Source: a virus. Taken from it: a DNA stretch of 64,000 nucleotides. The stretch covers positions 102,303-166,302 of the IMG/VR virus record IMGVR_UViG_3300045971_000356, one strand, 5' to 3'. Positions 1,880-48,425 of this stretch are shown here, in pieces (position 1 is the stretch's first letter; every line of letters begins with the position of its first letter). The notes beneath the pieces were generated by a model that saw nothing but the letters and a program-made list of their open reading frames with translations, was not told where the DNA came from and did not search any database. The translations under genes were made by a program, and so were the position numbers.

Positions 1880-2109
1880 AAAACATTTCTGAAATGTCAA
1901 CAACTGAACTTATCAAACTGCCGTATTCAGATGTTGTTCAAAGAGTTCGCAGTGGTGAATGGGGAGTAGAACATTTCACACAATGGGCTGAAGATCGCCT
2001 TAACTACGCATTTGGCGACGGGTATGACGAAGGTTATGAGACTGGTGAAGAACAAGAAAGAACCAAAAAGCTTGAAAATAAAAGCATGTATGTTATAATG
2101 CAGGCATAA
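1876..2109 (+). CDS. Hypothetical protein
   Basis: ATGA overlap with the HAD gene; ATG at 1876 preferred. Confidence 0.6.
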   Translation: MKNISEMSTTELIKLPYSDVVQRVRSGEWGVEHFTQWAEDRLNYAFGDGYDEGYETGEEQERTKKLENKSMYVIMQA

Positions 2110-2115
2110 ATACTA

Positions 2116-2138
2116 TTGCAAGGGATAGACCCGCGCAA
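2116..2138 (+). promoter_or_regulatory. G-ATAGA-C hairpin, copy 1 (before the relic NAMPT start)
   Basis: TTGC-AA-GGG-ATAGA-CCC-GC-GCAA upstream of AAGGAG. Confidence 0.65.
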
Positions 2139-2165
2139 CATTTTATATTTTAAAGGAGCTTTAAA

Positions 2166-2279
2166 ATGTCTTGTAAACTTCATTCATTCATTCATTCATT
2201 CATTCATTCATTCATTCATTCATTCATTCATTCATTCATTCATTCATTCATTCATTCATTCATTCAATCAATCATCACC
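2166..2279 (+). pseudogene. Relic original NAMPT N-terminus interrupted by a microsatellite
   Basis: Removing the (CATT)21 tract gives MSCKLQSII, versus MSKLDSII at 3301; same hairpin and RBS upstream. Confidence 0.6.
2179..2266. repeat. (TTCA)22 microsatellite
   Basis: Perfect 88 bp tetranucleotide tract. Confidence 0.95.
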
Positions 2280-3193
2280 GCAGTCTCTAATTTAGAGATA
2301 ATGTCCTCATTGAACCGAATTCGCAATAACTTAAATCCGTTTGTTGCAGCATATTCTGCTTTTATGTTGTCTCTTATCTGGGTCAACGCCAATTGATCAA
2401 CTCCCGAAATAAGTTTCGAAAAGGATATTGGTCTAAAATGATATTCACCGTCAAACTCTATCAAGAGATTCTGATTTGGAATAAAGAAATCGTATTTAAG
2501 ACGGCCTTTTTTAGATTTGTAATATAAGTTATTAAATGTTTTTTGATATTCGAAGTGTATATTATGTTTAACCAACCAGTTTTTAACAATAACTTCTCCC
2601 TTAGACGGATTAGAATTAGAGCAAGATGGGCAACCCACTCCGTTAGACCAATGATTTACCGGAGTTACAGAAAAATCACCATGTATGCTGCAAGTCACAT
2701 TAACTTTTTTATGAGCATTTACATAAATTACATTATTGTAGGAATATTGACCATTATGAGTTTTGTTGGCCTTCTCTATAAATCTGCTATTTCCAAGTTG
2801 AGTTTTATTAGCAGCAATATCTTTACCACAAAGAGGACATCCGGATTTATTTGTAATGTGTCCAATTTTGGTCTGGGTAAATTCGCCATGTATAGGACAT
2901 ATGATTATTAATTTCTTAGCTGATATATCAACGAGAGAATAATCATATTTGTTATTATGGATTTTATGGCCGTTGTTTATAAATCTACTAAGATTTTCCT
3001 CTTTAGTAAAACCGCGGCCGCTACATTTTAGACAACCATAACCGGAAAGATGGTTGTTCGGAGTAATCAAGAAGTCGCCATGCTCATTGCATGTAACGAT
3101 TACCTTGGTTTTAGCTGTGCTATACAATACTTTTGAATAATCAAACTTATTGCCATGCACTTTTTGAAATTTTGATATGACTGCTTGACACAT
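2264..3193 (-). CDS. Putative homing endonuclease (CxxHG Zn repeats plus C-terminal PD-(D/E)xK/Vsr-like nuclease)
   Basis: Three CxxHG/CxxC repeats; YDFFIP..LLIEFDGEYH; AT-rich; antisense; upstream ATAAATA and GGAG. Confidence 0.8.
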   Translation of the reverse strand: MCQAVISKFQKVHGNKFDYSKVLYSTAKTKVIVTCNEHGDFLITPNNHLSGYGCLKCSGRGFTKEENLSRFINNGHKIHNNKYDYSLVDISAKKLIIICPIHGEFTQTKIGHITNKSGCPLCGKDIAANKTQLGNSRFIEKANKTHNGQYSYNNVIYVNAHKKVNVTCSIHGDFSVTPVNHWSNGVGCPSCSNSNPSKGEVIVKNWLVKHNIHFEYQKTFNNLYYKSKKGRLKYDFFIPNQNLLIEFDGEYHFRPISFSKLISGVDQLALTQIRDNIKAEYAATNGFKLLRIRFNEDIISKLETAVMID

Positions 3194-3213
3194 ATTTACT
3201 CCTATTGTATAAT
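3185..3213 (+). promoter_or_regulatory. Consensus sigma70 promoter overlapping the HEG start codon, facing NAMPT
   Basis: TTGACA-N17-TATAAT. Confidence 0.8.
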
Positions 3214-3256
3214 GTATTTATGTATTTACAGTAGCTATATCAATTTTTATAGAAGA

Positions 3257-3275
3257 CCATGAGATAGACTTGTGG
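3257..3275 (+). promoter_or_regulatory. G-ATAGA-C hairpin, copy 2
   Basis: CCATGAG-ATAGA-CTTGTGG, 25 nt before the NAMPT ATG. Confidence 0.65.
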
Positions 3276-3300
3276 CAATTTTTAATAAAGGAGATTTATT

Positions 3301-4743
3301 ATGAGCAAGTTAGATAGTATTATATTAAATGTTGATAGTTATAAAGTAAGCATGAGCAGGCAGTATCCACCAGGAACTGAGTATGTGTACTCTTACATCG
3401 AATCACGCGGAGGCAAATATGACCGCACAGAATTTCTCGGGGTACAAGCACTTGCCAAGTATTTGGCCGAGCCAATCACGCAAGCGCAAATCGACTACGC
3501 AGATCGAATCTGGACACTCCATGGAGAACCTTTCAACCGAGAAGGTTGGCAGTACATTCTCGATAAACATGCTGGAAGACTTCCGTTGCGTATCAGAGCC
3601 GCTAAAGAAGGACTTATCATCCCTACGAAAAATGTGCTATGTACCATCGAAAACACAGACCCAAAATGCTTCTGGCTTACAACATGGGTCGAAACTGCCG
3701 CGTTACGTGCTATCTGGTACCCAACTACTGTGGGAACCACCAGCTGGCACATCAAGCAAGAAATTCTAAACTACTTGGAGATATCAGGTGATCCCACTAC
3801 TATTGCTTTTAAGCTTCATGATTTTGGTGCTCGCGGGGTTAGCTCTTGCGAGTCTGCTAAAATTGGGGGTGCGGCGCACCTTGTCAACTTCATGGGGACG
3901 GACACTATGTCTGGCATTCTGCACGTCAGTGATACCTACGGTAGCGATGTGTGTGGATTTAGTATCCCAGCCGCAGAACACAGTACCATCACAAGTTGGG
4001 GTCGTGCAAACGAAGTAGATGCTTACCGCAACATGGTCAAGCAGTTCGGTAAGCCTGGTGCCATCCTTGCCGTGGTATCTGACTCGTATGATATTTACAA
4101 AGCCTGCGAAATGTGGGGAACGGAGTTAAAAGATGACGTTATTGCAAGTGGTGCTACTGTTGTTATTCGTCCTGACTCTGGTGACCCTACTATTGTTCTT
4201 CCGAAAATGTTCAACATTCTTGGCAGCAGATTTGGATTTGTTAAAAATTCCAAAGGCTATAAAGTACTCAATAATGTTCGTGTTATTTGGGGCGATGGCA
4301 TTGATTCTATTAGCCTATCTGAAATACTTCGGACTGTTGTTGATGTAGGCGGTTGGTCTGCTGACAACATAGCATTCGGCATGGGTGGCGGACTCTTGCA
4401 ACAATGCAACCGTGACACCCAAGAGTTTGCTATGAAGGCTTCGGCTGTTGGTATTCGTGAATGGATACATGATGCTGCTGGTCTTTTGGAAAACAAGATT
4501 GTTTGGCGTGATGTATTCAAAGATCCAGTTACTGCTTCAAACAAAGCATCTAAGAAGGGTCGTGTGCAACTGTGGACAAATGGTGCTCCTCAAGGCACTG
4601 AATACGAAACCGCTGTAAATGCTCCTACTCGCTGGACTGACAAAGGCTTTGGCTGGGAAGATGCAATGCATACATACTTTGAAAATGGCAAGGTAGTATT
4701 CACACAAACGTTTGACGAAGTTCGTGCTAACTCAATGATGTAA
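3301..4743 (+). CDS. nadV: Nicotinamide phosphoribosyltransferase
   Basis: DSYK, LHDFGARG, SIPAAEHS, VSDSYD, IRPDSGDP and FGMGG motifs. Confidence 0.95.
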   Translation: MSKLDSIILNVDSYKVSMSRQYPPGTEYVYSYIESRGGKYDRTEFLGVQALAKYLAEPITQAQIDYADRIWTLHGEPFNREGWQYILDKHAGRLPLRIRAAKEGLIIPTKNVLCTIENTDPKCFWLTTWVETAALRAIWYPTTVGTTSWHIKQEILNYLEISGDPTTIAFKLHDFGARGVSSCESAKIGGAAHLVNFMGTDTMSGILHVSDTYGSDVCGFSIPAAEHSTITSWGRANEVDAYRNMVKQFGKPGAILAVVSDSYDIYKACEMWGTELKDDVIASGATVVIRPDSGDPTIVLPKMFNILGSRFGFVKNSKGYKVLNNVRVIWGDGIDSISLSEILRTVVDVGGWSADNIAFGMGGGLLQQCNRDTQEFAMKASAVGIREWIHDAAGLLENKIVWRDVFKDPVTASNKASKKGRVQLWTNGAPQGTEYETAVNAPTRWTDKGFGWEDAMHTYFENGKVVFTQTFDEVRANSMM

Positions 4744-4754
4744 AGGAGTTAAGC

Positions 4755-5018
4755 ATGACTAAACACCGCCTGATGAAAGATGAAGATGACTTTGCTGATA
4801 GTGTCGCAGTAGACGATGCGTCTTGGCAAGAGTTCATGGCCGCAGGCGGTGTTTATCCTAAACATGTAGATCCACCCACAGTGCCTGGCTCATTAGATGA
4901 CATTGAATTCAGTGAAGCATCAAAAGCAGAAGCAGAGTTCAATGCCACAGTGTTTAAAGATGCAGCAGTAAGCGCGACAGCATTTGACGATCTCAAAGAT
5001 AACGATTTAAGGAAATAA
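4755..5018 (+). CDS. Acidic hypothetical protein
   Basis: AAGGAG RBS; operon position. Confidence 0.65.
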   Translation: MTKHRLMKDEDDFADSVAVDDASWQEFMAAGGVYPKHVDPPTVPGSLDDIEFSEASKAEAEFNATVFKDAAVSATAFDDLKDNDLRK

Positions 5019-5019
5019 C

Positions 5020-5265
5020 ATGGTATCAATGTCTGAAGAATTTGCTGCATCACGCCACAAGCCTAAGTACGAGTTTATGGCTCGTGTTGAAGGCAAGTAC
5101 AAAAACATTCCCTTCGTCGGCAGCATCGGAAACGATACTGTGATTAGCGAAGCAGAAGGTCCAATATTTACCATCCATCTTGACTTGCCAATAAAAGTAG
5201 ACGGTGCTTACATCTGTTATCTAAAGTGTAAACAATCAGAGATTAAAAATCTCAAACGTCGTTAG
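5020..5265 (+). CDS. Hypothetical protein
   Basis: RBS; operon position. Confidence 0.65.
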   Translation: MVSMSEEFAASRHKPKYEFMARVEGKYKNIPFVGSIGNDTVISEAEGPIFTIHLDLPIKVDGAYICYLKCKQSEIKNLKRR

Positions 5266-5272
5266 TAAAACC

Positions 5273-5297
5273 ATTCGCAAAGATAGACTACGCGAAT
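5273..5297 (+). promoter_or_regulatory. G-ATAGA-C hairpin, copy 3
   Basis: ATTCGC-AA-AG-ATAGA-CT-AC-GCGAAT, 22 nt before the ATG. Confidence 0.65.
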
Positions 5298-5319
5298 CTA
5301 AAATTTTAAGGATCTTAAA

Positions 5320-6336
5320 ATGAAAAAATATCACTCTCTCGTAATGATCGGGCGCTTTCAGCCCGTACATAGTGCACACGCCGCAATTATTCGCCGTGCC
5401 GCCACACTTGCCCAACAGGTAATCATTATCGTTGGTTCAGCAAAGCAACCACGCACATACAAAAATCCCTGGTCGTCACACGAACGCAGGCTAATGCTTC
5501 AAAATGTGGTTGACTCCATTCAAACCGACGCAGTGGTGCGCATCGAGGAAAACATTGACACAATTTACAACGATCAAGCATGGGCTGGTCGCATACAGCA
5601 AATCGTTAGCAAGCACACCACCGCTGATGACAAAATCGGGATCATTGGGCACAAGAAAGACGAGTCCAGTTTTTACCTTGACATGTTCCCACAGTGGGAG
5701 TTTGAGAATGTGCCACTGCTTGAGCCGCTGCATGCGTCCAATGTGCGTGACCTTTACTTCCAAGAAAATGCCAACTTAAAGTTTTTACAAGGTGTGCTGC
5801 CACAACCTGTAATGCGTATGTTGGAGGGTTGGATTGGTACACCAGAGTACACCCAGGTAGTTCGTGAACGATTGTTCGTTGAAAAGTATCGCCAACAGTA
5901 TGCCTCACTGCCATACGAGCCAACCTTTGTCACCGCTGATGCTCTTGTGGTGTGTGCTGGCCATGTGCTTGTCGTTAAACGCAAGTCAGAGCCAGGCCGT
6001 GGATTGCTCGCGTTGCCAGGCGGATACTTGAACGCAAAGACTGACAAGTCGATGAAAGACTGTATGCTGCGTGAGTTGCGTGAGGAGACTGGTATCAAAG
6101 TGCCTGCTCCTGTGTTGCGTGGCTCCATTGTGTCGTCCCGTGTGTTTGACGGATTGGAACGTTCCGCACGTGGACGCATTATAACGCATGCGTTCCGCAT
6201 TGATCTCGCTGACACGGAACTGCCGCGGGTAAAGGGCGCTGATGACGCTTTCTCTGCTAAATTTATACCAATATCTGAACTTAAACCCGATAATATGTTT
6301 GAAGATCATTGGGAGATAATAAACGAAATGTTATAA
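5320..6336 (+). CDS. nadM: Bifunctional NMN adenylyltransferase / ADP-ribose pyrophosphatase (NadM-Nudix)
   Basis: IGRFQPVHSAH (HxxH) and Nudix box ALPGG...RELREETG; ends MFEDH. Confidence 0.93.
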   Translation: MKKYHSLVMIGRFQPVHSAHAAIIRRAATLAQQVIIIVGSAKQPRTYKNPWSSHERRLMLQNVVDSIQTDAVVRIEENIDTIYNDQAWAGRIQQIVSKHTTADDKIGIIGHKKDESSFYLDMFPQWEFENVPLLEPLHASNVRDLYFQENANLKFLQGVLPQPVMRMLEGWIGTPEYTQVVRERLFVEKYRQQYASLPYEPTFVTADALVVCAGHVLVVKRKSEPGRGLLALPGGYLNAKTDKSMKDCMLRELREETGIKVPAPVLRGSIVSSRVFDGLERSARGRIITHAFRIDLADTELPRVKGADDAFSAKFIPISELKPDNMFEDHWEIINEML

Positions 6337-6368
6337 TCATTTGCTCCTTTGACTAGTGGTATAAATAC

Positions 6369-7277
6369 ATGATGAGAACTTACAGAACTACCGAAACTGC
6401 ATTAGCAGACATTGCCGCCAAACACGGTAACAAAATAACAGCATTACCCACGTTTTCGTTCACAAACGTTGACAAGAAAGAAACGTTTGTTTGCAAAGAA
6501 CACGGGGAGTTCGAATCAACTGTTTATAGATTACTTAAATCGAAAGGTTATGGGTGTAATAAATGCTCCCCGTTTGGGCCAAAGGGGTGGGAGTATATGA
6601 AGCAGAAGATTTTCAACAAGCACGGTGATAGATATGAATACTATCTAAATGATGACACATACACCGCCGGTAGTAAATTAAAAATAATATGCCGTAAGCA
6701 TGGGGTATTTTATCAAAATTACGGAGATCATGTTACTGGTACTGGGTGCCCGACGTGTAGTAAAGAAGAAAAAGAAGTTTCAGTGAATGACTTTTTACTA
6801 AATGCAATAACTCACCACGGAAATTCTTACGGATATGATTACGTATTTGAGGATTATACAAAAGCCGCGTCAAAAGTTAGAATTATTTGTCCTAAGCACG
6901 GTATTTTCTTGCAGCAAGCAAACGATCACGGACGTGGTAGTGGATGCCCAAGTTGCAGTAATGCATCACGTGGTGAAAATTTAATTCGAAATTTTTTAAT
7001 TCGAAACAAAATAGAATATACCACACAAAAAACATTTCCTGATTGTGTTCGTAATAAAGGAAAATTAAAATATGACTTTTATTTGCCTGCACATAACATA
7101 CTAATCGAGTACGATGGAAAACAACACTTTGAAACAGGATTTTTGTGTCAGGACCTCGATGACATAAAGGCCACAGATGAATTTAAAACAAAATATGCTG
7201 CTGATAACGGATTTGTTTTATTACGCCTGCGATATGACGATAATTCTTTACAAATTTTACAGACAATGCTTGCATAA
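6369..7277 (+). CDS. Putative homing endonuclease, paralog of 2264..3193
   Basis: CxxHG repeats; YDFYLP..ILIEYDGKQH; TATAAATA at 6360. Confidence 0.8.
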   Translation: MMRTYRTTETALADIAAKHGNKITALPTFSFTNVDKKETFVCKEHGEFESTVYRLLKSKGYGCNKCSPFGPKGWEYMKQKIFNKHGDRYEYYLNDDTYTAGSKLKIICRKHGVFYQNYGDHVTGTGCPTCSKEEKEVSVNDFLLNAITHHGNSYGYDYVFEDYTKAASKVRIICPKHGIFLQQANDHGRGSGCPSCSNASRGENLIRNFLIRNKIEYTTQKTFPDCVRNKGKLKYDFYLPAHNILIEYDGKQHFETGFLCQDLDDIKATDEFKTKYAADNGFVLLRLRYDDNSLQILQTMLA

Positions 7278-7334
7278 TGTTGCTTTTTTACAACAAAAAT
7301 AATTGTTGACAATCAAGCATTTTGACTGTATAAT
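7278..7334 (+). promoter_or_regulatory. TGTTG-N8-CAACA palindrome plus sigma70 promoter
   Basis: Palindrome 7278-7295; TTGACA-N17-TATAAT 7306-7334; ATG 6 nt later. Confidence 0.75.
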
Positions 7335-7340
7335 AAGCGC

Positions 7341-7625
7341 ATGATACAAAAAACTGAATACGCTGTCTTTTGGGTAGACAGCACAAACACTGGCCCAGCC
7401 CATGTCAATCGTTTTGCCGCAATGGGCGAAGCGTTGGCGCTGATGCAAATACTGCGAGACAACGGACACCGTTTCGTGACTATGGCGTCTGAAAACATTG
7501 ACAACGTGGGGCTGATGGGCGTATCATCCATAGTGGACGGTAAGTGCCCAGACGGTTCTGAATTTCAAGGCCGTACAAGCCGCTATGGTGTGGCACTTGC
7601 ACGGAGCAAAAAGGAAGTATCATGA
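7341..7625 (+). CDS. Hypothetical early protein
   Basis: Directly follows the promoter. Confidence 0.7.
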   Translation: MIQKTEYAVFWVDSTNTGPAHVNRFAAMGEALALMQILRDNGHRFVTMASENIDNVGLMGVSSIVDGKCPDGSEFQGRTSRYGVALARSKKEVS

Positions 7626-7864
7626 CTAACGACGAATTTAAGATTTACAAAGCAAAAGTAGCCCGCAAGCATGCGTCATTGACACGCATTAAAAAAGAGT
7701 TCTTGGAACTGGTCGCACAGTGTACGCATAACGAACTGCGGCACAAAAAAGAGCATGAGGTTGGAGGCTACTTAAATACTGGCACAAACACAGAGTACGA
7801 CGAGTGCATCTTGTGCGGCAAAAAGTTTAATGTGGTTGAAACCTCAACAGGCATTTACGGGTAA
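7622..7864 (+). CDS. Hypothetical protein (CxH...CxxC)
   Basis: ATGA overlap. Confidence 0.65.
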   Translation: MTNDEFKIYKAKVARKHASLTRIKKEFLELVAQCTHNELRHKKEHEVGGYLNTGTNTEYDECILCGKKFNVVETSTGIYG

Positions 7865-7869
7865 ACATC

Positions 7870-8325
7870 ATGAAAATCGTAAAGGGCAATCTGCTTGACC
7901 TCGCAGAACAAGGGCACTTTCATGTTATTGTGCAAGGCTGCAACTGCTTTAACACGATGGGGTCTGGGCTTGCCAACGAGATCCGTGAACGTTATCCAGA
8001 CGCATGGCAGGTTGATCAAGAAACTCTGTCAGGTGACTACAATAAGCTCGGTAATTTTACTGTAATGCTTGGAAAACGTTTTAACATTGTCAACGCATAT
8101 ACACAATATGACTTTAGTCGTGGCAGCGATGTTTTTGAGTATACTGCGTTCCAACTTATCCTGCAGAAACTTGCTCACCAATATCCTGCCTGCAACTTTG
8201 GTTTTCCGAAGATTGGATGCGGGCTTGCTGGCGGTAATGAAAAAATAATTATGGACATGTTGCAACAGTTCAGCGACAACTTGCTACTAACTGGCGGCAC
8301 CGTAACAGTAGTTGAATTTGCATGA
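7870..8325 (+). CDS. Macrodomain / ADP-ribose processing protein
   Basis: KGNLL, GCNCFNTMGSGLA, FPKIGCGLAGG. Confidence 0.85.
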   Translation: MKIVKGNLLDLAEQGHFHVIVQGCNCFNTMGSGLANEIRERYPDAWQVDQETLSGDYNKLGNFTVMLGKRFNIVNAYTQYDFSRGSDVFEYTAFQLILQKLAHQYPACNFGFPKIGCGLAGGNEKIIMDMLQQFSDNLLLTGGTVTVVEFA

Positions 8326-8528
8326 AATATTGGAACAAGGATAAAAAAGTTAGGGTAAAGTGGGCAACGTCTCCTTCCCCAAAAATTAGTTCTGTTCCTA
8401 ATGCAAAAAATTGGTGCAAAAACAATGCAAGCACGGGCAAATTTTACTTTCACTATACAAATACGAGATGGTGGTTTGAACACGAGCACGATGCAACATT
8501 ATTCGCACTTGCTTGGTCAAATCGTTAA
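8322..8528 (+). CDS. Hypothetical protein
   Basis: ATGA overlap. Confidence 0.6.
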   Translation: MKYWNKDKKVRVKWATSPSPKISSVPNAKNWCKNNASTGKFYFHYTNTRWWFEHEHDATLFALAWSNR

Positions 8529-8749
8529 AAACACTTGACTTTGGCACATTTTAATGCTATACTAACCGCAAGTTACAAACAAAGATAGGTTAAATGAAAT
8601 GAATACAGAATCTAAGAGTATGCTTTGGCGAGGGGCATACCGACTTGGCTATGAAGTGGGATTTGCTATCGCAGCGATTGCGACGCTTGTCAACTTTGTG
8701 ATGTTCCCTTTCCCTCGCTATTAAACAACTTTTTAAAGGATTTTATATC

Positions 8750-9091
8750 ATGGCATACGCGACAGTGTTAATGACAAACGGTGTTGAAATTAAAAAGGCA
8801 CCAATTGGCTTTTCGTGGACTACGTTTTTCTTTGGCGGGTGGGTTGGTTTACTGCGCCAAGACTGGCTCAAAGGCAGTATCATCCTTGTTGGTGGGCTTT
8901 GCACCTATGGCATTGTGGGTATGGTGGCTGCTTTCTTCTACAATAAACTCTACATCAAAGGCTTGTTTGATCAAGGATATCGCGTTCACGCATTGCCACC
9001 AAATGTCTCAGAAGAAACACTACGCATCTACTGCGAGTATGTCGCGCTCCCTGGCGCTAAGGTACCTGCTGACAAGTCAGTAGCAGTTTAA
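8750..9091 (+). CDS. Membrane protein, HrgC/DUF2628-like
   Basis: KAPIGFSWTTFFFG...FYNKLYI with TM segments. Confidence 0.7.
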   Translation: MAYATVLMTNGVEIKKAPIGFSWTTFFFGGWVGLLRQDWLKGSIILVGGLCTYGIVGMVAAFFYNKLYIKGLFDQGYRVHALPPNVSEETLRIYCEYVALPGAKVPADKSVAV

Positions 9092-9390
9092 TTTTGATTG
9101 GACCTGTGTAAATTTTACACGGGTTCAATAGAAATATAAGTTGGAGTATGTTAAGTGTCGTATATAAGAATTGATGGATTTAGCGATAACCAAATGAAGC
9201 ACGCCGACATTTTGTGGCAACTACAATCTCAAGAAGAAGTTGAATTTTACTTGTCGGGGTTATTTAATAAAGATTGGGCGGACGCACAGATTGCTCTTCA
9301 CATGATTGCGGCTGAGGCTATTGACGGTATCAATCAAATTGAACCAGAGGTTGAAGAAATTATTAACAATATGAAGTAAAAGGCTTAATT

Positions 9391-9818
9391 ATGTTTTCAG
9401 AATCAAGATTCAAGCATTATCAAACAGGAGATGCAATCATTGATGCTCACCATCGTAATATTTTATCGTTAGCTGATGATACAATGGAACATTTGATTAA
9501 ATGGAAAGAATGCTTTACTGCTAACTGTCAATGCCAAGTTAACAATGTAATTCAAAATTTTATTGATGCACTAACTGATCATATCAATGAAGAAAATAAA
9601 TTCATGGATGACAATTTGTTTCAATATAGGGACATACATAAGAAAATTCATGAGCATTTTCTTATAGACGTTAAAAAGCAGTAGAATTTTATCAAAACTC
9701 AAGAGAGTCTGCCACACATGTTCAACATAAGTTGTATAAGTTAGTAGAACTATATTACTACCATATTGATAATTATGACTTGCAAATGGTACAGTGGATT
9801 AAGGAAAATAAAAAATGA
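9391..9818 (+). pseudogene. Hemerythrin-domain protein with a 1-nt frameshift in an A5 run
   Basis: IDAHH, HINEE and HKKIH in frame 0; final HIDNYD motif in the shifted frame after 9673-9677. Confidence 0.7.
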
Positions 9819-10507
9819 TGACAGAAGTATATGTTCGTAAAATGGCATCTATTCAAAAGATTGCCGAAGTAAAGGCTATTCCTGATGCAGATAAAATCTG
9901 TGCCTACCGTGTCAACGGGTGGTGGATTGTTGACCAAGTCGGCAAGTACGTCGTGGGCGATCTCGTTGTGTACGCAGAACCAGATTCATTCATCCCGGCC
10001 ACACTTGCACCTTTCTTGACAAAGCCAGGGCATTTTCCCAAGACGTATCTTAGTGTTGAAGGTGAAAAACTTCGAACTATCCGTCTGCGCAAGCAATTGT
10101 CTCAGGGACTGTTGCTGCCGCTAAATGTTGTGTTTGATGCCATGACGATGGAGCAGCGTTTGATTGCTGGCTCTGACGAGCTGATTGAAGGTACTGATGT
10201 ATCTGAAACACTGAATATCGTAAAGTGGGAAGCACCACCTGAGTTTACCTCTGCTGATGCTCGTGGATCATTTCCATCGTTCATCATCAAGACTGACCAA
10301 GAACGTGTGCAAAATTGTTTCGCCGATATGGAAGAACATTTTGAGCACCAAACATGGGAAGTTACAGAGAAGTGCGAAGGCTCTTCAATGACTGTGTATT
10401 TCCGAGATGGTGATTTTGGTGTCTGCAGCAGAAATTTAAATTTACTTGGAACTAAGTTTTTGCCATTTTCTTTTGATGATGAGCAAGTTGAAGATAAGAC
10501 TGTCTAG
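9815..10507 (+). CDS. RNA ligase (DRB0094/Rnl5-like), N-terminal half
   Basis: RKMASIQ, RLRKQLSQGL, KTDQERVQN, motif I EKCEGSS, CSRN. Confidence 0.88.
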   Translation: MMTEVYVRKMASIQKIAEVKAIPDADKICAYRVNGWWIVDQVGKYVVGDLVVYAEPDSFIPATLAPFLTKPGHFPKTYLSVEGEKLRTIRLRKQLSQGLLLPLNVVFDAMTMEQRLIAGSDELIEGTDVSETLNIVKWEAPPEFTSADARGSFPSFIIKTDQERVQNCFADMEEHFEHQTWEVTEKCEGSSMTVYFRDGDFGVCSRNLNLLGTKFLPFSFDDEQVEDKTV

Positions 10508-11261
10508 TCCGATTTAAATGATTGACTGTCATTACCTTTCGGTCGGATAGTCTACTACACAATAATTTGGCTGGGACGTTGGTTTTCTTATTGTTAACCC
10601 AACGATTGAACTCCATAAGTCTCATCACCTTTTTATCTATTAGTCTAGAAACATAAGTGATGTGCTTAGTTACACAGGCAAGTTTAGCGGATTTTGATTG
10701 AAGCTTTTTAGTTTCTGTTGATCTTTTACTACCATAATTTATACCCACATAGTTAGAAAGAGTTGGGTCATCTTTATGAATTCTAAAACAAATACCTGTT
10801 TTATTATCCTTTACTGTAATCCAATTCTTTTGACTATTTGATATATTTTTCTTGTGAGATTCACTAATGCATTTTCCAGTTTGGAAAGATACTAACTCTC
10901 CAGAAATATAACGAGGATCATTAACAGATACCCTAAACATAACACCAGTAGAATCTTTTACTACAACTAGATTTTTATTTGTGGGAGGATTTCCACCAAA
11001 AGATTTATTTAGTAATAATGGATGTCCCCAATGTTCTTTAATAAGATTTTGTTCAAAGTCGTTTGCATCTTGTGATTCATAAAATACCGCTAAAATTTCA
11101 TAATTATAATTGTCAAAATTTGGTTTTACAATTTTAGATGATGTCTTGTAAACAATTCCCAAATCAAATTCTGCTGGTACTTTATTTGCTTTCCTAAAAC
11201 CAAAATAAAATTCCGATGTTGTTTTATGAGTACACTTGTATACGTAGGGATAAATATTCAT
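10452..11261 (-). CDS. GIY-YIG/Seg-like homing endonuclease splitting the RNA ligase
   Basis: YPYVYKCTH...FYFGFR..Y.TSS N-terminus; basic C-terminal repeats; antisense. Confidence 0.75.
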   Translation of the reverse strand: MNIYPYVYKCTHKTTSEFYFGFRKANKVPAEFDLGIVYKTSSKIVKPNFDNYNYEILAVFYESQDANDFEQNLIKEHWGHPLLLNKSFGGNPPTNKNLVVVKDSTGVMFRVSVNDPRYISGELVSFQTGKCISESHKKNISNSQKNWITVKDNKTGICFRIHKDDPTLSNYVGINYGSKRSTETKKLQSKSAKLACVTKHITYVSRLIDKKVMRLMEFNRWVNNKKTNVPAKLLCSRLSDRKVMTVNHLNRTRQSYLQLAHHQKKMAKT

Positions 11262-11315
11262 GCTGGCATTCCTTTCAATGTTAGAGTTCATGGGTGTTCC
11301 ACCACCGCGATGAAC
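11260..11315 (-). ncRNA. Candidate structured leader of the HEG, copy 1
   Basis: GTTCAT-CGC-GGTG-loop-CACC-C-ATGAAC-TCTAA-hairpin-CCAGCA; same architecture as 46450-46515. Confidence 0.6.
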
Positions 11316-11322
11316 ATTTTTA

Positions 11323-11351
11323 TTGACACATATTAAACAATGTGTTATAAT
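11323..11351 (+). promoter_or_regulatory. Sigma70 promoter for the ligase C-terminal half
   Basis: TTGACA-N17-TATAAT. Confidence 0.8.
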
Positions 11352-11384
11352 ATATTTATCATATTTAATGGAAGTTTGGAAATT

Positions 11385-11942
11385 ATGATTGAAATTATTT
11401 CAAAAGATCAATTAGCAACATTACACATTGGTGACAAATTCATATATCGAGGAGCTGAGTATGTTGCTCAGTCGGAACCATACGAAAAGAATGGTCAAAT
11501 TGGTGTAGATGTAGATACAGACAATACGTTCTGGAAGATGGCACTTGAACTTGGTTTGAGGGAAAAGTTGACTAATGAAGGGTTAAACATTGCTATTCAA
11601 GGTGAACTATGTGGCCCTGGTATTCAAGGTAACATTTATAACTTGAGCAAGCACATGTTCTTTGTGTTTGATATTTTTGATATTGATCGTTTTGAATATA
11701 TTGTACCAAAATTGCGTAGAGATATCACTAAGGCTTTTGGGTTAACTGATGCACCTGTGCTTGAATGTGAAGCAACATTGTCTGGTCAAACATGCGCGTC
11801 ACTGCTAAATAAGGCAGATGGGCACTCTGTGCTTGGGCTAATTGGGTGTGCTCGTGAAGGTCTTGTCTTCAAGGCAAATTCTGACAGGCGAATTTCATTC
11901 AAAGCAGTTAGCAACAAATATTTAGAAAATATCAAAGATTAA
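11385..11942 (+). CDS. RNA ligase (DRB0094-like), C-terminal half
   Basis: NTFW, IQGELCGPGIQGN, FVFDI, REGLVFK, SFKAVSNKYL (motifs III-V). Confidence 0.88.
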   Translation: MIEIISKDQLATLHIGDKFIYRGAEYVAQSEPYEKNGQIGVDVDTDNTFWKMALELGLREKLTNEGLNIAIQGELCGPGIQGNIYNLSKHMFFVFDIFDIDRFEYIVPKLRRDITKAFGLTDAPVLECEATLSGQTCASLLNKADGHSVLGLIGCAREGLVFKANSDRRISFKAVSNKYLENIKD

Positions 11943-12227
11943 ATTAAGGAAATTAAATGAAAGAAAAATTTGTTAAACTTGTGATAATATGCGCTGTCGC
12001 CAGCGTCGGTGTTATTTTAGCTGACTTAGTATTGGTACTGAGTAGGGTATGAGTCTATTAGACTGGTTTTCAACGTACCGGCCGTTTGAGATGCCACTGG
12101 TTCCGCCAATGGCGGAACGATCTATGGTATATTATATACCACCTCCCAATACAACTTATACAACCATAGTATCAAAATATAAACCATTTTACTACTGTTC
12201 GAAGCCGTCTGTTAAACGGTGGAAACG

Positions 12228-28408: not shown

Positions 28409-28632
28409 AAAGCATTAAACTGTACCTTGTTGCCGGCACTGAAGTGACATTTTACCTCAGTGAAGCGCAAAGCATTGTGGTGATTGATGTGGCAGAGCCC
28501 AGGAATAGCTGCAAGCTCATTGACGGCATCCATAACAACGGTGGCTGGCACATTGCTGAATCCGCTGGCTCGTTGAACAAAAAGCTCAACGCACTGTTTA
28601 ACCCAAAGCCCTTTAACTCGGGACCAAAATAA
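28405..28632 (+). CDS. Hypothetical protein
   Basis: Overlap coupling at both ends. Confidence 0.65.
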   Translation: MKSIKLYLVAGTEVTFYLSEAQSIVVIDVAEPRNSCKLIDGIHNNGGWHIAESAGSLNKKLNALFNPKPFNSGPK

Positions 28633-28963
28633 TGGCTGAAGCATTCCGCGAAACAACACAGTGGAAAGGCTCCACTGTCAAAAATGGCATTTACTTACTC
28701 GAGGGCGACAAGTGCCTCGCGTTCCGCAACTTTAAATCTGAGACCACTTACTTCACAAAGCCAATAACGATCGACAAGCGTGGTCGCACGTTTGAGAAGT
28801 TGGGCAAGATTCCGTTTGTTGTTGAAGCAGAAGTAAAAACTGATCTGCGCGAAGTAGCAGGCAGCAAAGGCGCCATTTACTACGTAAATGATGAAGAAAA
28901 ACCTGTACGTGCGCTGGATTTCAGTTTAGGGGAAAGTGTCGCCACCTCGAAGAACTGAAATAA
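28632..28963 (+). CDS. SWIM zinc-finger protein with a 1-nt frameshift in the A5 run at 28897-28901
   Basis: GSKGAIYYV then TCTCAGFQFRGKCRH in the -1 frame. Confidence 0.7.
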
Positions 28964-29833: not shown

Positions 29834-29884
29834 TTTAAGTATCGCGGAAACTGCAAACATTTATATCAAAAACACTTGACTTAA
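29834..29884 (+). pseudogene. Relic original C-terminus of the SWIM protein
   Basis: FKYRGNCKHL versus FQFRGKCRHL before the HEG. Confidence 0.7.
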
Positions 29885-29927
29885 CAGCAAGAATCGCGTA
29901 TAATACAGCATACGCAAAAGGACACAT

Positions 29928-31337
29928 ATGAACGCACCCCAGACTATTTTGGCAGAGATTACTGCTAACGATTCAAAACTTGCCAAACAAGCTATCCTCG
30001 AACGCGAGGCAAAGGCTGGCAATGACAACTTTTTCAAAGGGCTGTTGCTTGCTTGCAACCAGGTGATCACATTCGGGGTCAAAGCGGTTGAAGAAAAGCC
30101 AGTCAAACGTGCTAACGAGCCAGCGCCAAAAGGCTTATCACATGATGTGTTTTTCAAGCTGACTGACAAATTGGCAAAGCGTGAGCTGACTGGTGATGCT
30201 GCGCAGGTAGCTATTGCGCATGCCCGCAACATGGCAACGGCAGAAGAATGGAACGGCTGGTTCCGTTTGGTTCTAATCAAGGACTTGAAGGCAGGCTTTA
30301 GCGAAAGCACTATTAACAAAGTTTGCGAAACAAAATACCCACAATATTCAGTCCCGTTGTTTGAATGCCAGTTGGCTCACGACGGTGCTAACTACGAAGA
30401 AAAGTTAGTTGGCAAGAAACTTGTTGACACAAAACTTGACGGTATGCGTGTCATTACCGTTGTTTACCCTGACGGTAAGGTGGACCAGTTTAGCCGCAAC
30501 GGCAAGGAACTTGTCAACTTCATTAAGGTGAAGGAACAGTTGAGTAAGGTTGCTAAATTTTTCGCAGAGCCTACTGTGCTGGACGGCGAGATTATGTCAG
30601 CCTCATTCCAAGACTTGATGAAGCAAGCACGTCGCAAAACTGATGTGCAAGCAGACGACGCAGTGTTGAATTTATTTGACATCGTTACGTTGAAAGACTT
30701 CCAAGCAGGCATTAGCAACAATCGTCAAATTGACCGTAGCTACACGCTTGGCATTTGGTTTGAGAACGTAAAAGACAAAGTGCCTAACGTTAACGTGCTG
30801 GGTCAAGAACTTGTTGATCTTGACACCCCTGAAGGGCAAGCCCGTTTGGATGAGATCAACGCCATTGCGTTGGCTGGTAAGTATGAAGGCATCATGCTTA
30901 AAGATCCAGAAGCACCATACGAGTGCAAACGCAGTGTGGCATGGTTGAAGATCAAACCTTACATTGAAGTGACGCTCAAAGTTGTCGACGTTGAAGAAGG
31001 TAGTGCAGACAGCAAATTTGTTGGCACCATGGGCGCAGTGGTGTTTGAAGGCGAAGATGACGGCAAGTTTATTAACGTACATTGCGGCGGTGGCTTCAGC
31101 GTTAAACAACGTGCGCAAATTTGGGCAACCCATACTGGCAAGCCAGTTGAGTGGAAGAAAAAGGAAGGCGGCAAGTGGGTAACTATTGTTGAGCAACCTA
31201 ACAAAGGCGGCATGATTGGCATGCTTGGTGAAGTACGTGCTGACGCTATTACAAAGAGCGATAGCAAGGATCACTACAGCTTGCGTTTTCCGCGGTTCAA
31301 GATTTGGCGTGGTTTTGCGCCTGGTGAAAAACTTTAA
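29928..31337 (+). CDS. lig: ATP-dependent DNA ligase
   Basis: KLDGMR, LDGEI, EGIMLK, WLKIKP, SLRFPRF. Confidence 0.95.
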   Translation: MNAPQTILAEITANDSKLAKQAILEREAKAGNDNFFKGLLLACNQVITFGVKAVEEKPVKRANEPAPKGLSHDVFFKLTDKLAKRELTGDAAQVAIAHARNMATAEEWNGWFRLVLIKDLKAGFSESTINKVCETKYPQYSVPLFECQLAHDGANYEEKLVGKKLVDTKLDGMRVITVVYPDGKVDQFSRNGKELVNFIKVKEQLSKVAKFFAEPTVLDGEIMSASFQDLMKQARRKTDVQADDAVLNLFDIVTLKDFQAGISNNRQIDRSYTLGIWFENVKDKVPNVNVLGQELVDLDTPEGQARLDEINAIALAGKYEGIMLKDPEAPYECKRSVAWLKIKPYIEVTLKVVDVEEGSADSKFVGTMGAVVFEGEDDGKFINVHCGGGFSVKQRAQIWATHTGKPVEWKKKEGGKWVTIVEQPNKGGMIGMLGEVRADAITKSDSKDHYSLRFPRFKIWRGFAPGEKL

Positions 31338-31952: not shown

Positions 31953-32126
31953 ATGACAAACAAAACACAAACATGGGAAGTTACGGTCGAAGAAGACCCA
32001 GCAGATTCTGAAAATGTAATCCTTCCGTTCCCGGAAGATATGCTCGCTCAGTTAGGCTGGGTTGATGGTGACACACTAAACTGGGCCGTACAAGAAGACG
32101 GCACAGTTATTCTCACTAAAGTTTAA
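31953..32126 (+). CDS. AbrB/MazE-like DNA-binding protein (57 aa, not in the ORF track)
   Basis: ILPFPEDMLAQLGWVDGDTL. Confidence 0.7.
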   Translation: MTNKTQTWEVTVEEDPADSENVILPFPEDMLAQLGWVDGDTLNWAVQEDGTVILTKV

Positions 32127-32494
32127 AGTGGTGGCAGGTTAGCGATAATACGGGCTGCCCTGCCCGCTTTGATAAGGCCAATTGACTCTAAAAATTTGAC
32201 GCCAGAAATTGTGTCAACTAAGTGCAAATCTACCTCGCCGCTAACTTCCAAATCTTTTTGCAACGTAGTTACTGTTGCTTTTATCGACCCAGAAAATGCT
32301 GAGTTGTATTGAATATTATCGATTGCAGTTCTCTCTGCTAATGTAAATAATTTTCTAAATTGATACTTAGTTAGCATTAACGGTTCTGCTGAAATAGGTG
32401 CAGCCACAACTACGCTTGGGTGTAATTGTTCTTGAGTTAACGGATTTGGACTACCAATAACGATTGGTTTCTTTTGAATAATTTGTGTTGCCAT
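32123..32494 (-). CDS. Tail-fibre-associated protein, paralog of 40804 and 41505
   Basis: LTKYQFRKLFT..E...GLI.AGRA motif. Confidence 0.7.
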   Translation of the reverse strand: MATQIIQKKPIVIGSPNPLTQEQLHPSVVVAAPISAEPLMLTKYQFRKLFTLAERTAIDNIQYNSAFSGSIKATVTTLQKDLEVSGEVDLHLVDTISGVKFLESIGLIKAGRAARIIANLPPL

Positions 32495-32546
32495 TTTGAG
32501 AATATCTCCAGTATCAAGTATTTATCTATTCAATCAAAACACACAG

Positions 32547-41933: not shown

Positions 41934-41956
41934 GTTTTATTAAAGGAGAGACCACT

Positions 41957-44016: not shown

Positions 44017-44017
44017 C

Positions 44018-44149: not shown

Positions 44150-44189
44150 ATATGCTCTGTTAAAAATTCTCGGGATTCAGCATAAATAT

Positions 44190-44576: not shown

Positions 44577-44616
44577 CGTTTATTTTGTGTTATACTGTGA
44601 ATACCACAGTAAAAAC

Positions 44617-45069: not shown

Positions 45070-45070
45070 T

Positions 45071-45361: not shown

Positions 45362-45402
45362 GTACACTATAATGGACAAGAAGCAACGTGCAACTCAAAT
45401 AA

Positions 45403-45792: not shown

Positions 45793-45794
45793 TA

Positions 45795-45896
45795 ATGAAA
45801 TACCAATTTCCACATATCCACAATTTGGATCAAGTTTTACCTGTTGTTAAAGACCGGCCAGAATTCATCGTGTCTGAAAAGGACGGGCGCCACTAA
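45795..45896 (+). pseudogene. Relic original N-terminus of the Rnl1-like ligase
   Basis: 16/31 aa identical without gaps to the N-terminus at 46573. Confidence 0.85.
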
Positions 45897-46459
45897 TGTT
45901 GCCGCAATCTTGCATTTCGCTCACGTAAAGATGCCGCAATTTTTCCCCGTGTTTCAGCAGATACTGTATGCCCCATTTTTGATGCTGATATTTGAGCCTT
46001 CTTTTCTTCAGAATGTCTACATAATCTTACTTTAGCAGAAATGCCAGCCCTAACTTCAGCAGATCTATTTGCCCCTGCACGTGACTTCTTTGCGCGGGTC
46101 TCATCTGAAATAGGTGGTCTATTTTTAGCAGACTTAGACATTTTGATTCTTGTTTCTTCAGATATACCAGTTGCTCCTTCTCCTCCGTCAGTTCTGTTTG
46201 CGAGAATTCCAGTGTGTAAATCTTTTCGACCATGCCATTGAATCATTCTTCGCTCTATTGCAAATGCCCCAAGTTCAGTTAACCCAGTCTCAAGTATTAT
46301 GATCAATGATTTGTCTAACGGGATAGGAAAATATTTATGAGTTGTTATTGCTCTATTACCAGAACCCTTACCAATGTAATATGGAGTTCCTGCTTTGGCA
46401 GTTTTGGAATCTTTGTCACGCAAGTATGCGTAGACGTAATAAGTATTATTGCTGGACAT
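45893..46459 (-). CDS. GIY-YIG homing endonuclease with NUMOD3 repeats
   Basis: YYVYAYLR...PYYIGKG..R; NRTDGGEG; SEETR.KMS. Confidence 0.85.
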
Positions 46460-46515
46460 AAAAGCCTTTCGTCAGGTTGTTTAGAGTAGTTGGAACCGCC
46501 AAGTTCGCGAACTAC
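46450..46515 (-). ncRNA. Candidate structured leader of the HEG, copy 2
   Basis: TATAAATA then GTAGTT-CGC-GAAC-loop-GTTC-C-AACTAC-TCTAA-hairpin-CCAGCA. Confidence 0.6.
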
Positions 46516-46572
46516 ACTAATATTTATACAAATTTATTGACTCCACGACATTTATCGTATATAATTCTAACT

Positions 46573-47187
46573 ATGAAATATCAATTTGAACCAGCATCAC
46601 ACATAAGCGACTATTTGGCAGCAATCAAAGATCGTTCTGAATTTGTAGTCGTCGAAAAAGACGGCGGCTACACAGTCATAAATTATTTGGTCCAAATGGC
46701 CGATACTTTTCCAGACCCAGAGACTGCGTCTTCTCCAGAAGAACGTCGCAATTTTATTTTGCGTCGTGAATGTCGCGGAATTATTTTCAGCACTGCCACT
46801 GGTCATGTCATTGCAAAAAGATTGCACAAGTTTTTCAACGTAAACGAACGCGAGGAAACTCAAGTTGGCAAAGTTGATTTTTCTGAGCCACACGTGATCT
46901 TGGAAAAGTTGGACGGATCAATGATTACTCCAGTTTGGACGACCCTAGGCTTGCGTTGGGGAACAAAAATGGGTGTGACTATGGTTGCACTGCCAGTTGA
47001 AGAGTTTGTCGCAGAGCATCCAGAGTATGTGGATTTAGCAGAGCTATGCCGCGACAACAGATTAACCCCCATATTTGAGTGGACTTCCCGCAAGCAAACC
47101 ATCGTCATTGATTACCCAACAGACAATCTAGTATTGATTGCTATCCGCAATAATGTTACTGGGGAATATCTTCCTTACGACGAATGA
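46573..47187 (+). CDS. T4 Rnl1-like RNA ligase, N-terminal half
   Basis: RECRG, KFFN, EKLDGS, IFEW, LIAIRNN.TG.Y; promoter 46537-46565. Confidence 0.88.
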   Translation: MKYQFEPASHISDYLAAIKDRSEFVVVEKDGGYTVINYLVQMADTFPDPETASSPEERRNFILRRECRGIIFSTATGHVIAKRLHKFFNVNEREETQVGKVDFSEPHVILEKLDGSMITPVWTTLGLRWGTKMGVTMVALPVEEFVAEHPEYVDLAELCRDNRLTPIFEWTSRKQTIVIDYPTDNLVLIAIRNNVTGEYLPYDE

Positions 47188-47806
47188 TGGTTTTGAATAT
47201 GTGGTGTAATGCTGCTTCAGATATCGGAGCATTGTAAGAGATGATCTTTTTGTCGCGGCATTCTTTTATTACACTATCGTTTACAGTGGCATAATGTTCA
47301 AATATTTTATGCAGCAGGTTTTTAAGGCGAGTTTCCATAATATGGATAGTTTGCTGTGCTTTTTGCTCGCCACGCTTATGAGGTATTCCTTTATTCCACG
47401 GTATTTTTCCTATGTTTTTACCTATCATGCTGGCAGATATTTTACCTCTTGTAACGACAGTTTGAAAGACACGCCTAGGTGGGCGACTATTTTCGCAAAT
47501 GTTCATCAAAATACCATTTGCGTCATACCCTTTTCTGCCATAAATCTTAATCTGGGCTTCCTCTAAATCATATGCCGCGGTTTCACACATTCCTTCTTGA
47601 AACAACTGTATTACTGGTTCAATCCCTTTCCCCCTCAATGATTTGATTTTATCCTGCACTCTCTTAGATGATTTATTTCTGGACCTTCCTGTCATTAAAT
47701 GCGAGTCTGCTCTATTACCGCTTCCTTTTCCGACATAAAAAGGTTGACTTGTTGTTGGATCTAGTATAAAATACACATAATAGTTATTGTTCATTGTGAG
47801 CACCAT
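47156..47806 (-). CDS. GIY-YIG homing endonuclease splitting the RNA ligase
   Basis: YYVYFILDP...PFYVGKG..R...H; IPWNKG. Confidence 0.82.
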   Translation of the reverse strand: MVLTMNNNYYVYFILDPTTSQPFYVGKGSGNRADSHLMTGRSRNKSSKRVQDKIKSLRGKGIEPVIQLFQEGMCETAAYDLEEAQIKIYGRKGYDANGILMNICENSRPPRRVFQTVVTRGKISASMIGKNIGKIPWNKGIPHKRGEQKAQQTIHIMETRLKNLLHKIFEHYATVNDSVIKECRDKKIISYNAPISEAALHHIFKTIIRRKEDIPQ

Positions 47807-47828
47807 TCAAAGTTTATAAAGTATTTAT

Positions 47829-48425
47829 ATGATTACCATGAAATCGTTAGGTTTACAGTTCAAAATCCCCGTAGTGAAAGCATACAACGGTACCGCTGCT
47901 AACATGCAAGCACTGATCGACCAAGTTGGACCAATGGTGGGTTTGGAAGGCTTTGTGGTGCGGTTTGAGTCCGGGCACATGGTGAAAATCAAGGCTGAGG
48001 ACTACGTGCGTAAGCACAAGGCTAAAGACATGATTGGCCGTGAGAAGAACATTGTTGAACTGCTTGTAACAGAAAAGATGGACGATGTCAAGCCTTTCCT
48101 GGATGCTGTTGATCTTGCTCGTGTAAACGAGTTTGAAAAGCAGTTCTGGAACGGTGTAAAGGATGTCGGCTCTGAGTTGCTATTGCTGCGTGAATATGCT
48201 ACCACTCATAACCTTGACGGCGATCGCAAAACGTTCGCTAACGAGTTTGTGAAAAAGTTGGCACCGGTGATGGCGCGGTTTATGTACAAGATGTTTGACA
48301 AAACGGAAGACCCAATAGAGTTGTTGAAAACTGCTATATCGCAATCGTGCGGAACGCAAGTTAAAATCGACGAAGCACGTTGGATGTTCAAATGCAACTG
48401 GAACGGCAATGCCGTAGAGGAGTAA
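47829..48425 (+). CDS. T4 Rnl1-like RNA ligase, C-terminal half
   Basis: EGFVV (motif IV) and VKIKAEDY (motif V); candidate promoter 47744-47772. Confidence 0.85.
   Translation: MITMKSLGLQFKIPVVKAYNGTAANMQALIDQVGPMVGLEGFVVRFESGHMVKIKAEDYVRKHKAKDMIGREKNIVELLVTEKMDDVKPFLDAVDLARVNEFEKQFWNGVKDVGSELLLLREYATTHNLDGDRKTFANEFVKKLAPVMARFMYKMFDKTEDPIELLKTAISQSCGTQVKIDEARWMFKCNWNGNAVEE

Follow-up and report, generated by a model that had tools for sequence, protein, structure and literature searches.

The final 64 kb of the virus record IMGVR_UViG_3300045971_000356 from IMG/VR (positions 102,303 to 166,302 of 166,302 bp), hereafter called the window, contains five free-standing homing endonuclease genes (HEGs), HEG-A to HEG-E. 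Based on comparison with relatives, these HEGs probably entered their host genes by intronless homing and persist there as antisense cassettes that limit the damage done to the invaded gene. Nearly all genes of the window lie on the plus strand, and the HEGs are five open reading frames (ORFs) on the minus strand (Table 1), each matching homing-endonuclease families in the PHROG database and each with just 22-114 nt of non-coding DNA beside it. At least 14 antisense HEG-like ORFs are present in the whole genome. As expected of intronless homing, no intron or intein was detected, close HEG-free alleles exist for the sites of A, B, D and E, and the DNA around cassette B is a mosaic. A megablast search of window positions 2000-12000 against phage records gave no match, indicating that there is no close phage record at the DNA level, and the comparisons below were made with partial relatives recovered from IMG/VR and from metagenome contigs.

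An original prediction, made from the letters of the window alone, had already placed five antisense HEGs inside host genes and held that neither introns nor inteins were involved. It further claimed that a relic of the old gene end and a replacement end flank three of the HEGs, that two HEGs split an RNA ligase, and that four have an outward sigma70 promoter at their 5' end, back to back with an ATAAATA-like promoter of their own. All of this is borne out. Two different RNA ligase genes, contiguous in relatives, are split by B and E. The relic is significant at D, supported at C and moderately supported at A. The promoters of A-D are near consensus, HEG-E has one as well, with two mismatches, and the ATAAATA motif precedes all five HEGs.

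Table 1 Positions of the five HEGs and of the adjoining host gene parts in the window
Feature	Position	Strand	Elements and remarks
NAMPT 5' relic	2072-2186	+	TTGAAA-N17-TATAAT, 2072-2100; GATAGAC-loop hairpin, 2116-2138; ribosome binding site (RBS) AAAGGAG; ATG, 2166; about seven codons (MSCKLHS)
(TTCA)24 microsatellite	2179-2275		97% pure; between relic and 3' end of HEG-A
HEG-A	2264-3193	-	ATAAATA on minus strand, 3221-3215
NAMPT unit	3185-4743	+	TTGACA-N17-TATAAT, 3185-3213 (-35 box overlaps HEG-A start codon); leader hairpin, 3257-3275; RBS; NAMPT, 3301-4743
RNA ligase, N half	9815-10507	+	TIGR02306/PHA02142-type; motif I and SRN; homology to intact alleles stops at 10444; tail, 10445-10507
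HEG-B	10452-11291	-	Putative Seg-like GIY-YIG; ATAAATA on minus strand, 11359-11353
RNA ligase, C-half unit	11323-11942	+	TTGACA-N17-(TGT)TATAAT, 11323-11351; leader, 11385-11516; C half from DNTFWK, about 11517-11942
Small SWIM-like zinc-finger gene	28632-28963	+	Body in frame 0 to about 28893; CxC...CxH end in frame +2, 28898-28963; replacement from about 28919
HEG-C	28926-29822	-	ATAAATA on minus strand, 29834-29828; 3' end overlapped by replacement end
Relic of zinc-finger 3' end	29834-29884	+	FKYRGNCKHL..., then stop; final ten codons at 29834-29863
DNA ligase unit	29876-31337	+	TTGACT-N17-TATAAT, 29876-29904; ATP-dependent DNA ligase, 29928-31337
Rnl1 5' relic	45795-45896	+	33 codons; ATG 2 nt past stop of upstream gene
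HEG-D	45893-46459	-	GIY-YIG; TATAAATA on minus strand, 46528-46521
Rnl1 N-half unit	46537-47187	+	TTGACT-N17-TATAAT, 46537-46565; ATG, 46573; replacement 5' end, 46573-46671
HEG-E	47156-47806	-	GIY-YIG; TATAAATA on minus strand, 47829-47822
Rnl1 C half	47829-48425	+	Motifs IV and V and Rnl1 C-domain; MIT, then resumes exactly at N-half stop

Two RNA ligase genes in pieces

The gene interrupted by HEG-B is contiguous in four IMG/VR relatives (L005-L008), which share 83-91% amino acid identity with its N half. Alignment with these HEG-free alleles sets the breakpoints: window positions 10427-11519 stand in place of 30 nt of L005, and the break falls between SRNLNL and DNTFWK, within the nucleotidyltransferase domain, at the cost of four residues. 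Motif I and SRN are found in the N half and the later motifs in the C half, as in a gene in pieces. The insertion gives the N half a conserved tail of 13-20 residues (LGTKFLPFSF..) and the C half a leader of 44 residues. The same split arrangement occurs in two further metagenomic lineages (L107-L110 and L111), and three genomes (window, L108 and L111) retain the outward promoter with its TG extension, the tail and the leader.

HEG-B, its promoter and the 44-residue leader together show about 88% identity to a metagenomic contig, against only about 65% for the ligase of that contig, while the ligase of the window is about 90% identical to a HEG-free allele. In a sliding comparison with the HEG-bearing L108, nucleotide identity is 0.83-0.93 over approximately 10355-11570 and 0.5-0.7 in the outer ligase, and the same outer ligase reaches 0.84-0.98 against the HEG-free L005. 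The synonymous divergence (dS) between the two B cassettes is 0.56, and that between the two N halves is saturated. Judged by these identity patterns, cassette B is shown to be mobile, with a horizontal history separate from that of its host ligase, and it is a clear case in nature of a mobile block and its host gene having unlike histories. The original prediction had taken the mobile unit to be a HEG, a promoter and a recoded, cleavage-resistant gene end. The joint travel of HEG, promoter and adjoining coding DNA stands at B; the recoding does not extend to all sites, as the B leader is not detectably recoded ligase and HEG-E comes without a replacement.

HEG-E splits a second ligase gene, Rnl1. 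Here the two halves abut on intact homologues with zero loss or overlap, only the residues MIT are added and no replacement gene end is carried, and the final 9-10 codons of HEG-E overlap the N half's end on the opposite strand. The N half retains motif I and the C half EGFVVRF and KIK, again as in a gene in pieces. Orthologues of HEG-E (55-58% identical) occupy the identical site in L039 and L119, and the Rnl1 of these two is more distant from that of the window than the Rnl1 of the HEG-free L012-L014. This patchy distribution argues for mobility or precise loss.

The pieces might simply be wreckage: if the HEGs had landed in dispensable accessory genes (the two RNA ligases and the small zinc-finger gene at C), the host genes would be dead and decaying without having acquired stop codons yet. 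RNA-repair genes are indeed accessory, and the zinc-finger gene at C has a frameshift. Each ligase, however, occurs in three independent genomes with both halves still open and their catalytic motifs retained. The ratio of nonsynonymous to synonymous divergence (dN/dS) is 0.09-0.25 for the ligase halves and 0.11 for the cassette-borne B leader, a value equal to that of HEG-B and indicative of purifying selection. In the tail peptide, too, synonymous changes leave the residues conserved, even where an overlapping HEG is lacking. Death of the interrupted genes is accordingly regarded as improbable.

Still less credible, to the point of being very nearly dismissed, is that splicing takes the insertions out of the RNA (group I or II intron) or out of the protein (split intein), so that the genes would not really be in pieces. 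Inteins do occur at other sites in metagenomic homologues of the B-type ligase, and phages commonly have fractured genes with split inteins (PMC2677866). Against this, the HEGs are antisense. Because no Rfam family was matched anywhere in the 64-kb window at gathering thresholds, a group I intron is taken to be absent from it, no Rfam intron of any kind was found, and Pfam gives no intein or Hint domain in any gene half. HEG-E adds nothing but MIT. At B, the tail and leader total only about 60 residues, and the tail begins with Leu and the leader ends in ..VD before Thr, with no Cys or Ser nucleophile and no terminal His-Asn.

Returning to damage-limiting cassettes, the tail and leader at B could have a role of their own. 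It is conceivable, though on balance rather unlikely, that cassette B is a portable kit for splitting genes, with these two orphan peptides acting as an association module that needs no intein and allows the two chains to restore a single active site. In that case, a HEG could colonise the middle of a catalytic domain without intron or intein. A predicted complex of the ligase N-lobe and tail with the leader scored 0.23 against a mark of 0.32, which is evidence neither way. The ligase family hidden Markov model finds nothing in the first 43 residues of the leader, and a profile search of 1.84 billion representatives for a leader homologue outside the cassette returned only the same split-ligase cluster and two repeat proteins. 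It was also considered, following a MAFFT/tblastn hint (YEKNGQIGV against YFRDGDFGV), whether the leader derives from the ligase segment preceding the break by duplication and divergence, and this origin was set aside as unproven (hhalign P=0.12).

The likely true start of HEG-B is ATG 11261 (MNIYPYVYK), behind a hairpin in its 5' untranslated region (UTR; 11262-11352, minus strand). This hairpin has compensatory changes across the window, L108 and L111 and is followed by UCUAAC and a Shine-Dalgarno mini-hairpin. By analogy, it is similar to hairpins that are known to control the translation of free-standing HEGs.

Displaced and replaced gene ends

At the three remaining sites, a gene end is found on both sides of the HEG. 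The clearest duplication is that at HEG-D, where 31-33 codons from the start of Rnl1 recur in the relic and the gene itself begins anew at 46573 (tblastx E=1e-8, 48% amino acid identity). Relics that are also present in HEG-free relatives would speak against an insertion; for D, no second start was found in 78 other Rnl1 loci. Compared with the three closest HEG-free alleles, the relic is 69% identical at the nucleotide level and the replacement 52-59% (21/31 versus 16-17/31 residues). The mRNA of the restarted gene is probably leaderless because the -10 box ends 7 nt before ATG 46573; no Shine-Dalgarno sequence is present in 46560-46575. No close donor allele for the replacement end was retrieved among 80 Rnl1 loci, nor any flank duplication at the relatives of HEG-D in other loci. 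In L066, a HEG-D-like gene is intergenic and lies upstream of an intact Rnl1 with a TTGACA promoter, which is the layout expected of a donor for D.

At HEG-C, the downstream ATP-dependent DNA ligase is full length and therefore not the invaded gene, which is instead the small upstream ORF. Its orthologue in G004/L101, where a 42%-identical HEG sits at the same position, ends in a SWIM-like CxC...CxH motif. The relic on the far side of HEG-C agrees with the functional end of L101 in 8/10 residues and 21/30 nt, and the replacement copy in 6/10 residues and 17/30 nt. These figures support a scenario in which the last ten or more codons of the gene were moved to the far side of HEG-C, which provides a new end. 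As to the DNA ligase itself, a pattern scan of viral contigs yielded no relatives, and one was reached by genome search instead.

At HEG-A, the neighbouring NAMPT gene is complete. Orthologues of HEG-A (68-69% identical) lie antisense just upstream of NAMPT in L112 and L113, which brings the number of genomes with the layout HEG, promoter, leader and NAMPT to three; in the HEG-free G001, NAMPT directly follows another gene. Over its first 22 residues, NAMPT has 64% identity to that of G001, versus 87% overall, which fits a co-conversion tract. A hairpin with a GATAGAC loop is located 38 nt before the NAMPT start codon and also before the NadM-Nudix gene (5273-5297). A third one, at 2124, is found 42 nt before ATG 2166, which has the same RBS as NAMPT. 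Three of the five GATAGAC occurrences in the window thus lie 38-42 nt before the ATG of an NAD-salvage gene or relic, and the hairpin may be a shared regulatory leader of the NAD-salvage genes. In L113, the relic hairpin and RBS likewise lie beside the 3' end of its HEG, with relic junctions that differ from those in the window. Taken together, it is moderately supported that HEG-A left behind a relic of the NAMPT leader and start codon. The GATAGAC hairpin is kept with different stems in L112 and L113.

The three flank duplications can also be read without any dedicated mobile unit. The HEGs would then be intergenic genes upstream of their target's promoter, co-conversion would copy the intervening donor DNA, and relics would be left where the recipient has no homology on the far side. 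This explanation is a serious one, judged to fall only slightly short of an even chance. HEG-A orthologues always lie upstream of promoter, leader and NAMPT, the HEG-D-like gene of L066 has just such an intergenic position, the relic junctions at A differ between the window and L113, and a microsatellite fills the left junction at A. Moreover, among the 14 antisense HEG-like ORFs, a protein-level flank duplication with E<=1e-3 is seen only at D, the value for C being 0.006. On the other hand, the promoters at B and E lie within DNA that is missing from contiguous alleles, and three genomes retain the B promoter and orphan leader under purifying selection. Co-conversion from intergenic donors differs from the cassette explanation mainly in emphasis where A, C and D are concerned.

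Outward promoters and ATAAATA motifs

Outward plus-strand promoters of the form TTGACA/T-N17-TATAAT start at 3185, 11323, 29876 and 46537, from 8 nt inside to 78 nt past the start codons of HEGs A-D, against a background of 0.02-0.05 sites per 240 nt. The corresponding promoter of HEG-E (TTGACT-N17-TAAAAT, two mismatches) is located at 47744-47772, inside its 5' coding region, and is partly conserved in L039. Outward promoters also accompany related HEGs in L013, L101, L111 and L094, and those at B, D and E sit in DNA missing from contiguous alleles. Genome-wide, sites with at most one mismatch to TTGACA-N16-18-TATAAT show a strong strand bias, with 37 on the plus strand and 1 on the minus strand.

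The HEGs themselves are preceded by a different element. The 64 kb contain seven minus-strand ATAAATA motifs, five of which lie 12-68 nt upstream of the five HEG start codons; across the genome, 11/14 antisense HEG-like ORFs have such a motif 7-69 nt upstream. By analogy with T4 and Aeh1 (PMC2677866, PMC2988022), ATAAATA is a putative late promoter. A sixth antisense ORF of the window, 32123-32494 on the minus strand (123 aa, not HEG-like), also has ATAAATA 31 nt upstream, at 32525.

Nuclease families

HEG-E is the sole one of the five to exceed a Pfam GIY-YIG threshold (LEM-3_GIY-YIG, 29.6 bits, cutoff 27). HEG-D shares PHROG 15526 with it and has a YVY...YIGKG motif (YVYAY...) and NUMOD3-like repeats. 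HEG-B matches PHROG 314 at 8e-17, and its hhalign match to a D/E profile is weak (E=5e-4, probability 32%), aligning YVYK..FYFGF with YVYA..YYIGKG. HEG-C (298 aa) belongs to a recurrent family, with matches to the homing-endonuclease PHROGs 655 and 2081. Its resemblance to GIY-YIG is one of motif only (WLCVKQH..GLKYFCKT..YLGSG; hhalign probability 1.6%), and for its catalytic domain a Pfam search gave nothing and a PDB sequence search nothing meaningful. HEG-A (309 aa) contains treble-clef zinc-finger repeats, scoring 31.9 bits for DUF4379 (cutoff 24.5) and 30.9 bits for CapR (cutoff 24.2). Its C-terminus has a sub-threshold match to the Vsr-like DUF559 (16.9 bits, cutoff 20.6) and nothing meaningful in a PDB sequence search, and its family is labelled 'HNH' in PHROG 559. 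These matches support at least two nuclease types among the five HEGs, in line with the two families that had been proposed from the letters.

Proposed mechanism

In the proposed mechanism, each nuclease would cut a HEG-less allele near the insertion site, and repair would copy the HEG together with adjoining donor DNA. Where both sides are homologous, a clean insertion would result, as at B and E. With homology confined to the gene-internal side, illegitimate joining would close the other side and strand the gene end of the recipient as a relic, as suggested for A, C and D. The carrier would be immune to further cleavage because its site is split (B and E) or because the replacement copy has diverged (A, C and D). 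Each cassette would bring a divergent control region, in which the ATAAATA-type element, with a structured leader at B, serves the HEG and the near-consensus sigma70 promoter allows the host sequence downstream to be transcribed again.

What accompanies this control region would differ by site. A and D would bring a new 5' gene end, consisting of a leader and first codons or of 33 codons, and leave the native 5' end upstream. C would bring a new 3' gene end, antisense to the last codons of the HEG itself, and leave the native 3' end downstream. B and E would bring a stop for the upstream half and a start for the downstream half, at B together with the short tail and the 44-residue leader. A one-chain ligase would thus become two chains, whose halves presumably reassemble and work.

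Several observations weigh against this mechanism or parts of it. The relic at A is short and its plain DNA similarity to the NAMPT leader is not significant (p=0.14), and for that reason the case for it rests on the hairpin, its spacing and the parallel in L113. HEG-A is more diverged from its orthologues (69%) than the host gene is (87%), as is HEG-C, with 42% identity to its orthologue versus 65-68% for the host gene; since both are diverged beyond their host genes, there is no sign of recent transfer. At D, the distinction between a native relic and a foreign replacement is a trend only (Fisher p=0.3), and distant relatives are closer to the relic in only 35 cases, versus 28. At C, a 1-nt deletion in an A-run (28886-28897), relative to G004/L101, puts the gene body out of frame with the replacement end. 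This deletion could be a real mutation making a pseudogene, an assembly error or a case of programmed frameshifting, and the zinc-finger gene may be dead here. With regard to the promoters, those at A and D may just as well belong to the donor gene and have been brought in by co-conversion. Of the nine antisense HEG-like ORFs in the first 100 kb of the genome, only one has a sigma70 consensus promoter no more than about 100 nt from its start; therefore, the pairing may be confined to the sigma70-rich part of the genome.

Relation to known systems

The overwriting of a gene end by a homing element has been described in fungi. According to PMC3630166, mobile endonuclease ORFs (mORFs) form gene hybrids in mitochondrial atp6 of Allomyces macrogynus and in atp6, atp9, cox2 and nad3 of Glomus, and 3' duplications of atp6 and cob are known from Endoconidiophora (PMC6279837). 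In these cases, an endonuclease ORF enters without an intron and with a diverged copy of the gene end, and the native duplicate is closer to relatives; the best match in the window is C. A and D are the mirror image, with 5' ends replaced (promoter, leader and start codon) instead of 3' ends. The window further differs in its phage host, in the antisense position of the HEGs and in the sigma70 promoter within the inserted block.

In the yeasts Torulaspora and Lachancea, FBA1 is the homing target of WHO elements, and every integration gives this gene a new 3' end (Coughlan et al. 2020, PMC7282813). WHO elements share with the window homing without splicing, an overwritten gene end and old ends left as relics. 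Their cleavage is allele-specific, as would be expected here. However, they are intein-like LAGLIDADG/zinc-finger fusions in a eukaryotic nucleus, whereas the window has putative GIY-YIG and Vsr-like enzymes, a phage setting and only one relic per site. A duplicated end flanking the HEG, with one copy stranded as in mORFs and WHO elements, is found at D, C and A, although the new end at C is out of frame with the sequence upstream owing to the 1-nt deletion. At C and D, the stranded copy tends to be closer to relatives than the inserted one, in the direction known from mORFs, on small numbers and, for D, with the Fisher p value given above.

Genes in pieces are known from T4-like phages, where mobE splits nrdA in Aeh1, mobA lies between genes 39 and 60 in T4 and a seg gene interrupts gene 43 in phage 25, with intronless homing by Seg enzymes (PMC2988022). 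Like these, B and E split a contiguous enzyme gene in its catalytic domain, leaving two ORFs that each have their own stop and start, with a patchy distribution and co-converted flanks. The HEGs of T4 are all co-oriented with their neighbours except segD (PMC2988022), in contrast to the window, whose five HEGs all run antisense and each have an outward promoter alongside. Among the invaded genes, RNA ligases are new, and B adds a conserved orphan tail and leader.

Fractured genes have both a split intein and a free-standing GIY-YIG or Vsr-like HEG (Dassa et al. 2009, PMC2677866). There as well, such HEGs break enzyme genes, HEG ends overlap host coding sequence, and control elements arrive with the HEG, including TATAAATA and a hairpin in the HEG 5' UTR. 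However, the three ORFs of a fractured gene share a strand and its protein is rejoined by split inteins, whereas in the window the HEGs are on the opposite strand and no intein domain, N-terminal Cys/Ser or C-terminal His-Asn is found.

In the literature, no description was found of antisense HEG cassettes with outward promoters, of 5'-end replacement in phages or of split RNA ligases; the principle is known from fungal mitochondria and yeast and is barely described in phages. The window would extend it to phages, and to 5' ends with regulatory leaders. Within one phage region, it appears to show the full range of front-end replacement, back-end replacement and two-chain split, each with a restart promoter. 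The relic boundaries also predict where the nucleases cut, so that experiments on target sites, immunity and split-enzyme assembly can be designed.

Other observations

PHROG annotation of the large ORFs neighbouring the cassettes added little context. The B-type ligase family is a hot spot for mobile elements. Inteins (PF14890) are present in its metagenomic homologues P0005, P0013 and P0035, at two or more sites other than the break in the window, and in L010 (4001-5255) a same-strand GIY-YIG gene follows codon 135. The contig L111, which carries a B-type cassette, also has a 302-aa Rnl1 N part followed by an antisense HEG-D-like NUMOD3 gene (6972-8558), at a different Rnl1 site. Outside the window, a tRNA cluster at the start of the genome (G000:C1:1-10100) contains duplicate tRNA-Pro(TGG) and tRNA-Trp(CCA) genes beside antisense HEG-like ORFs.

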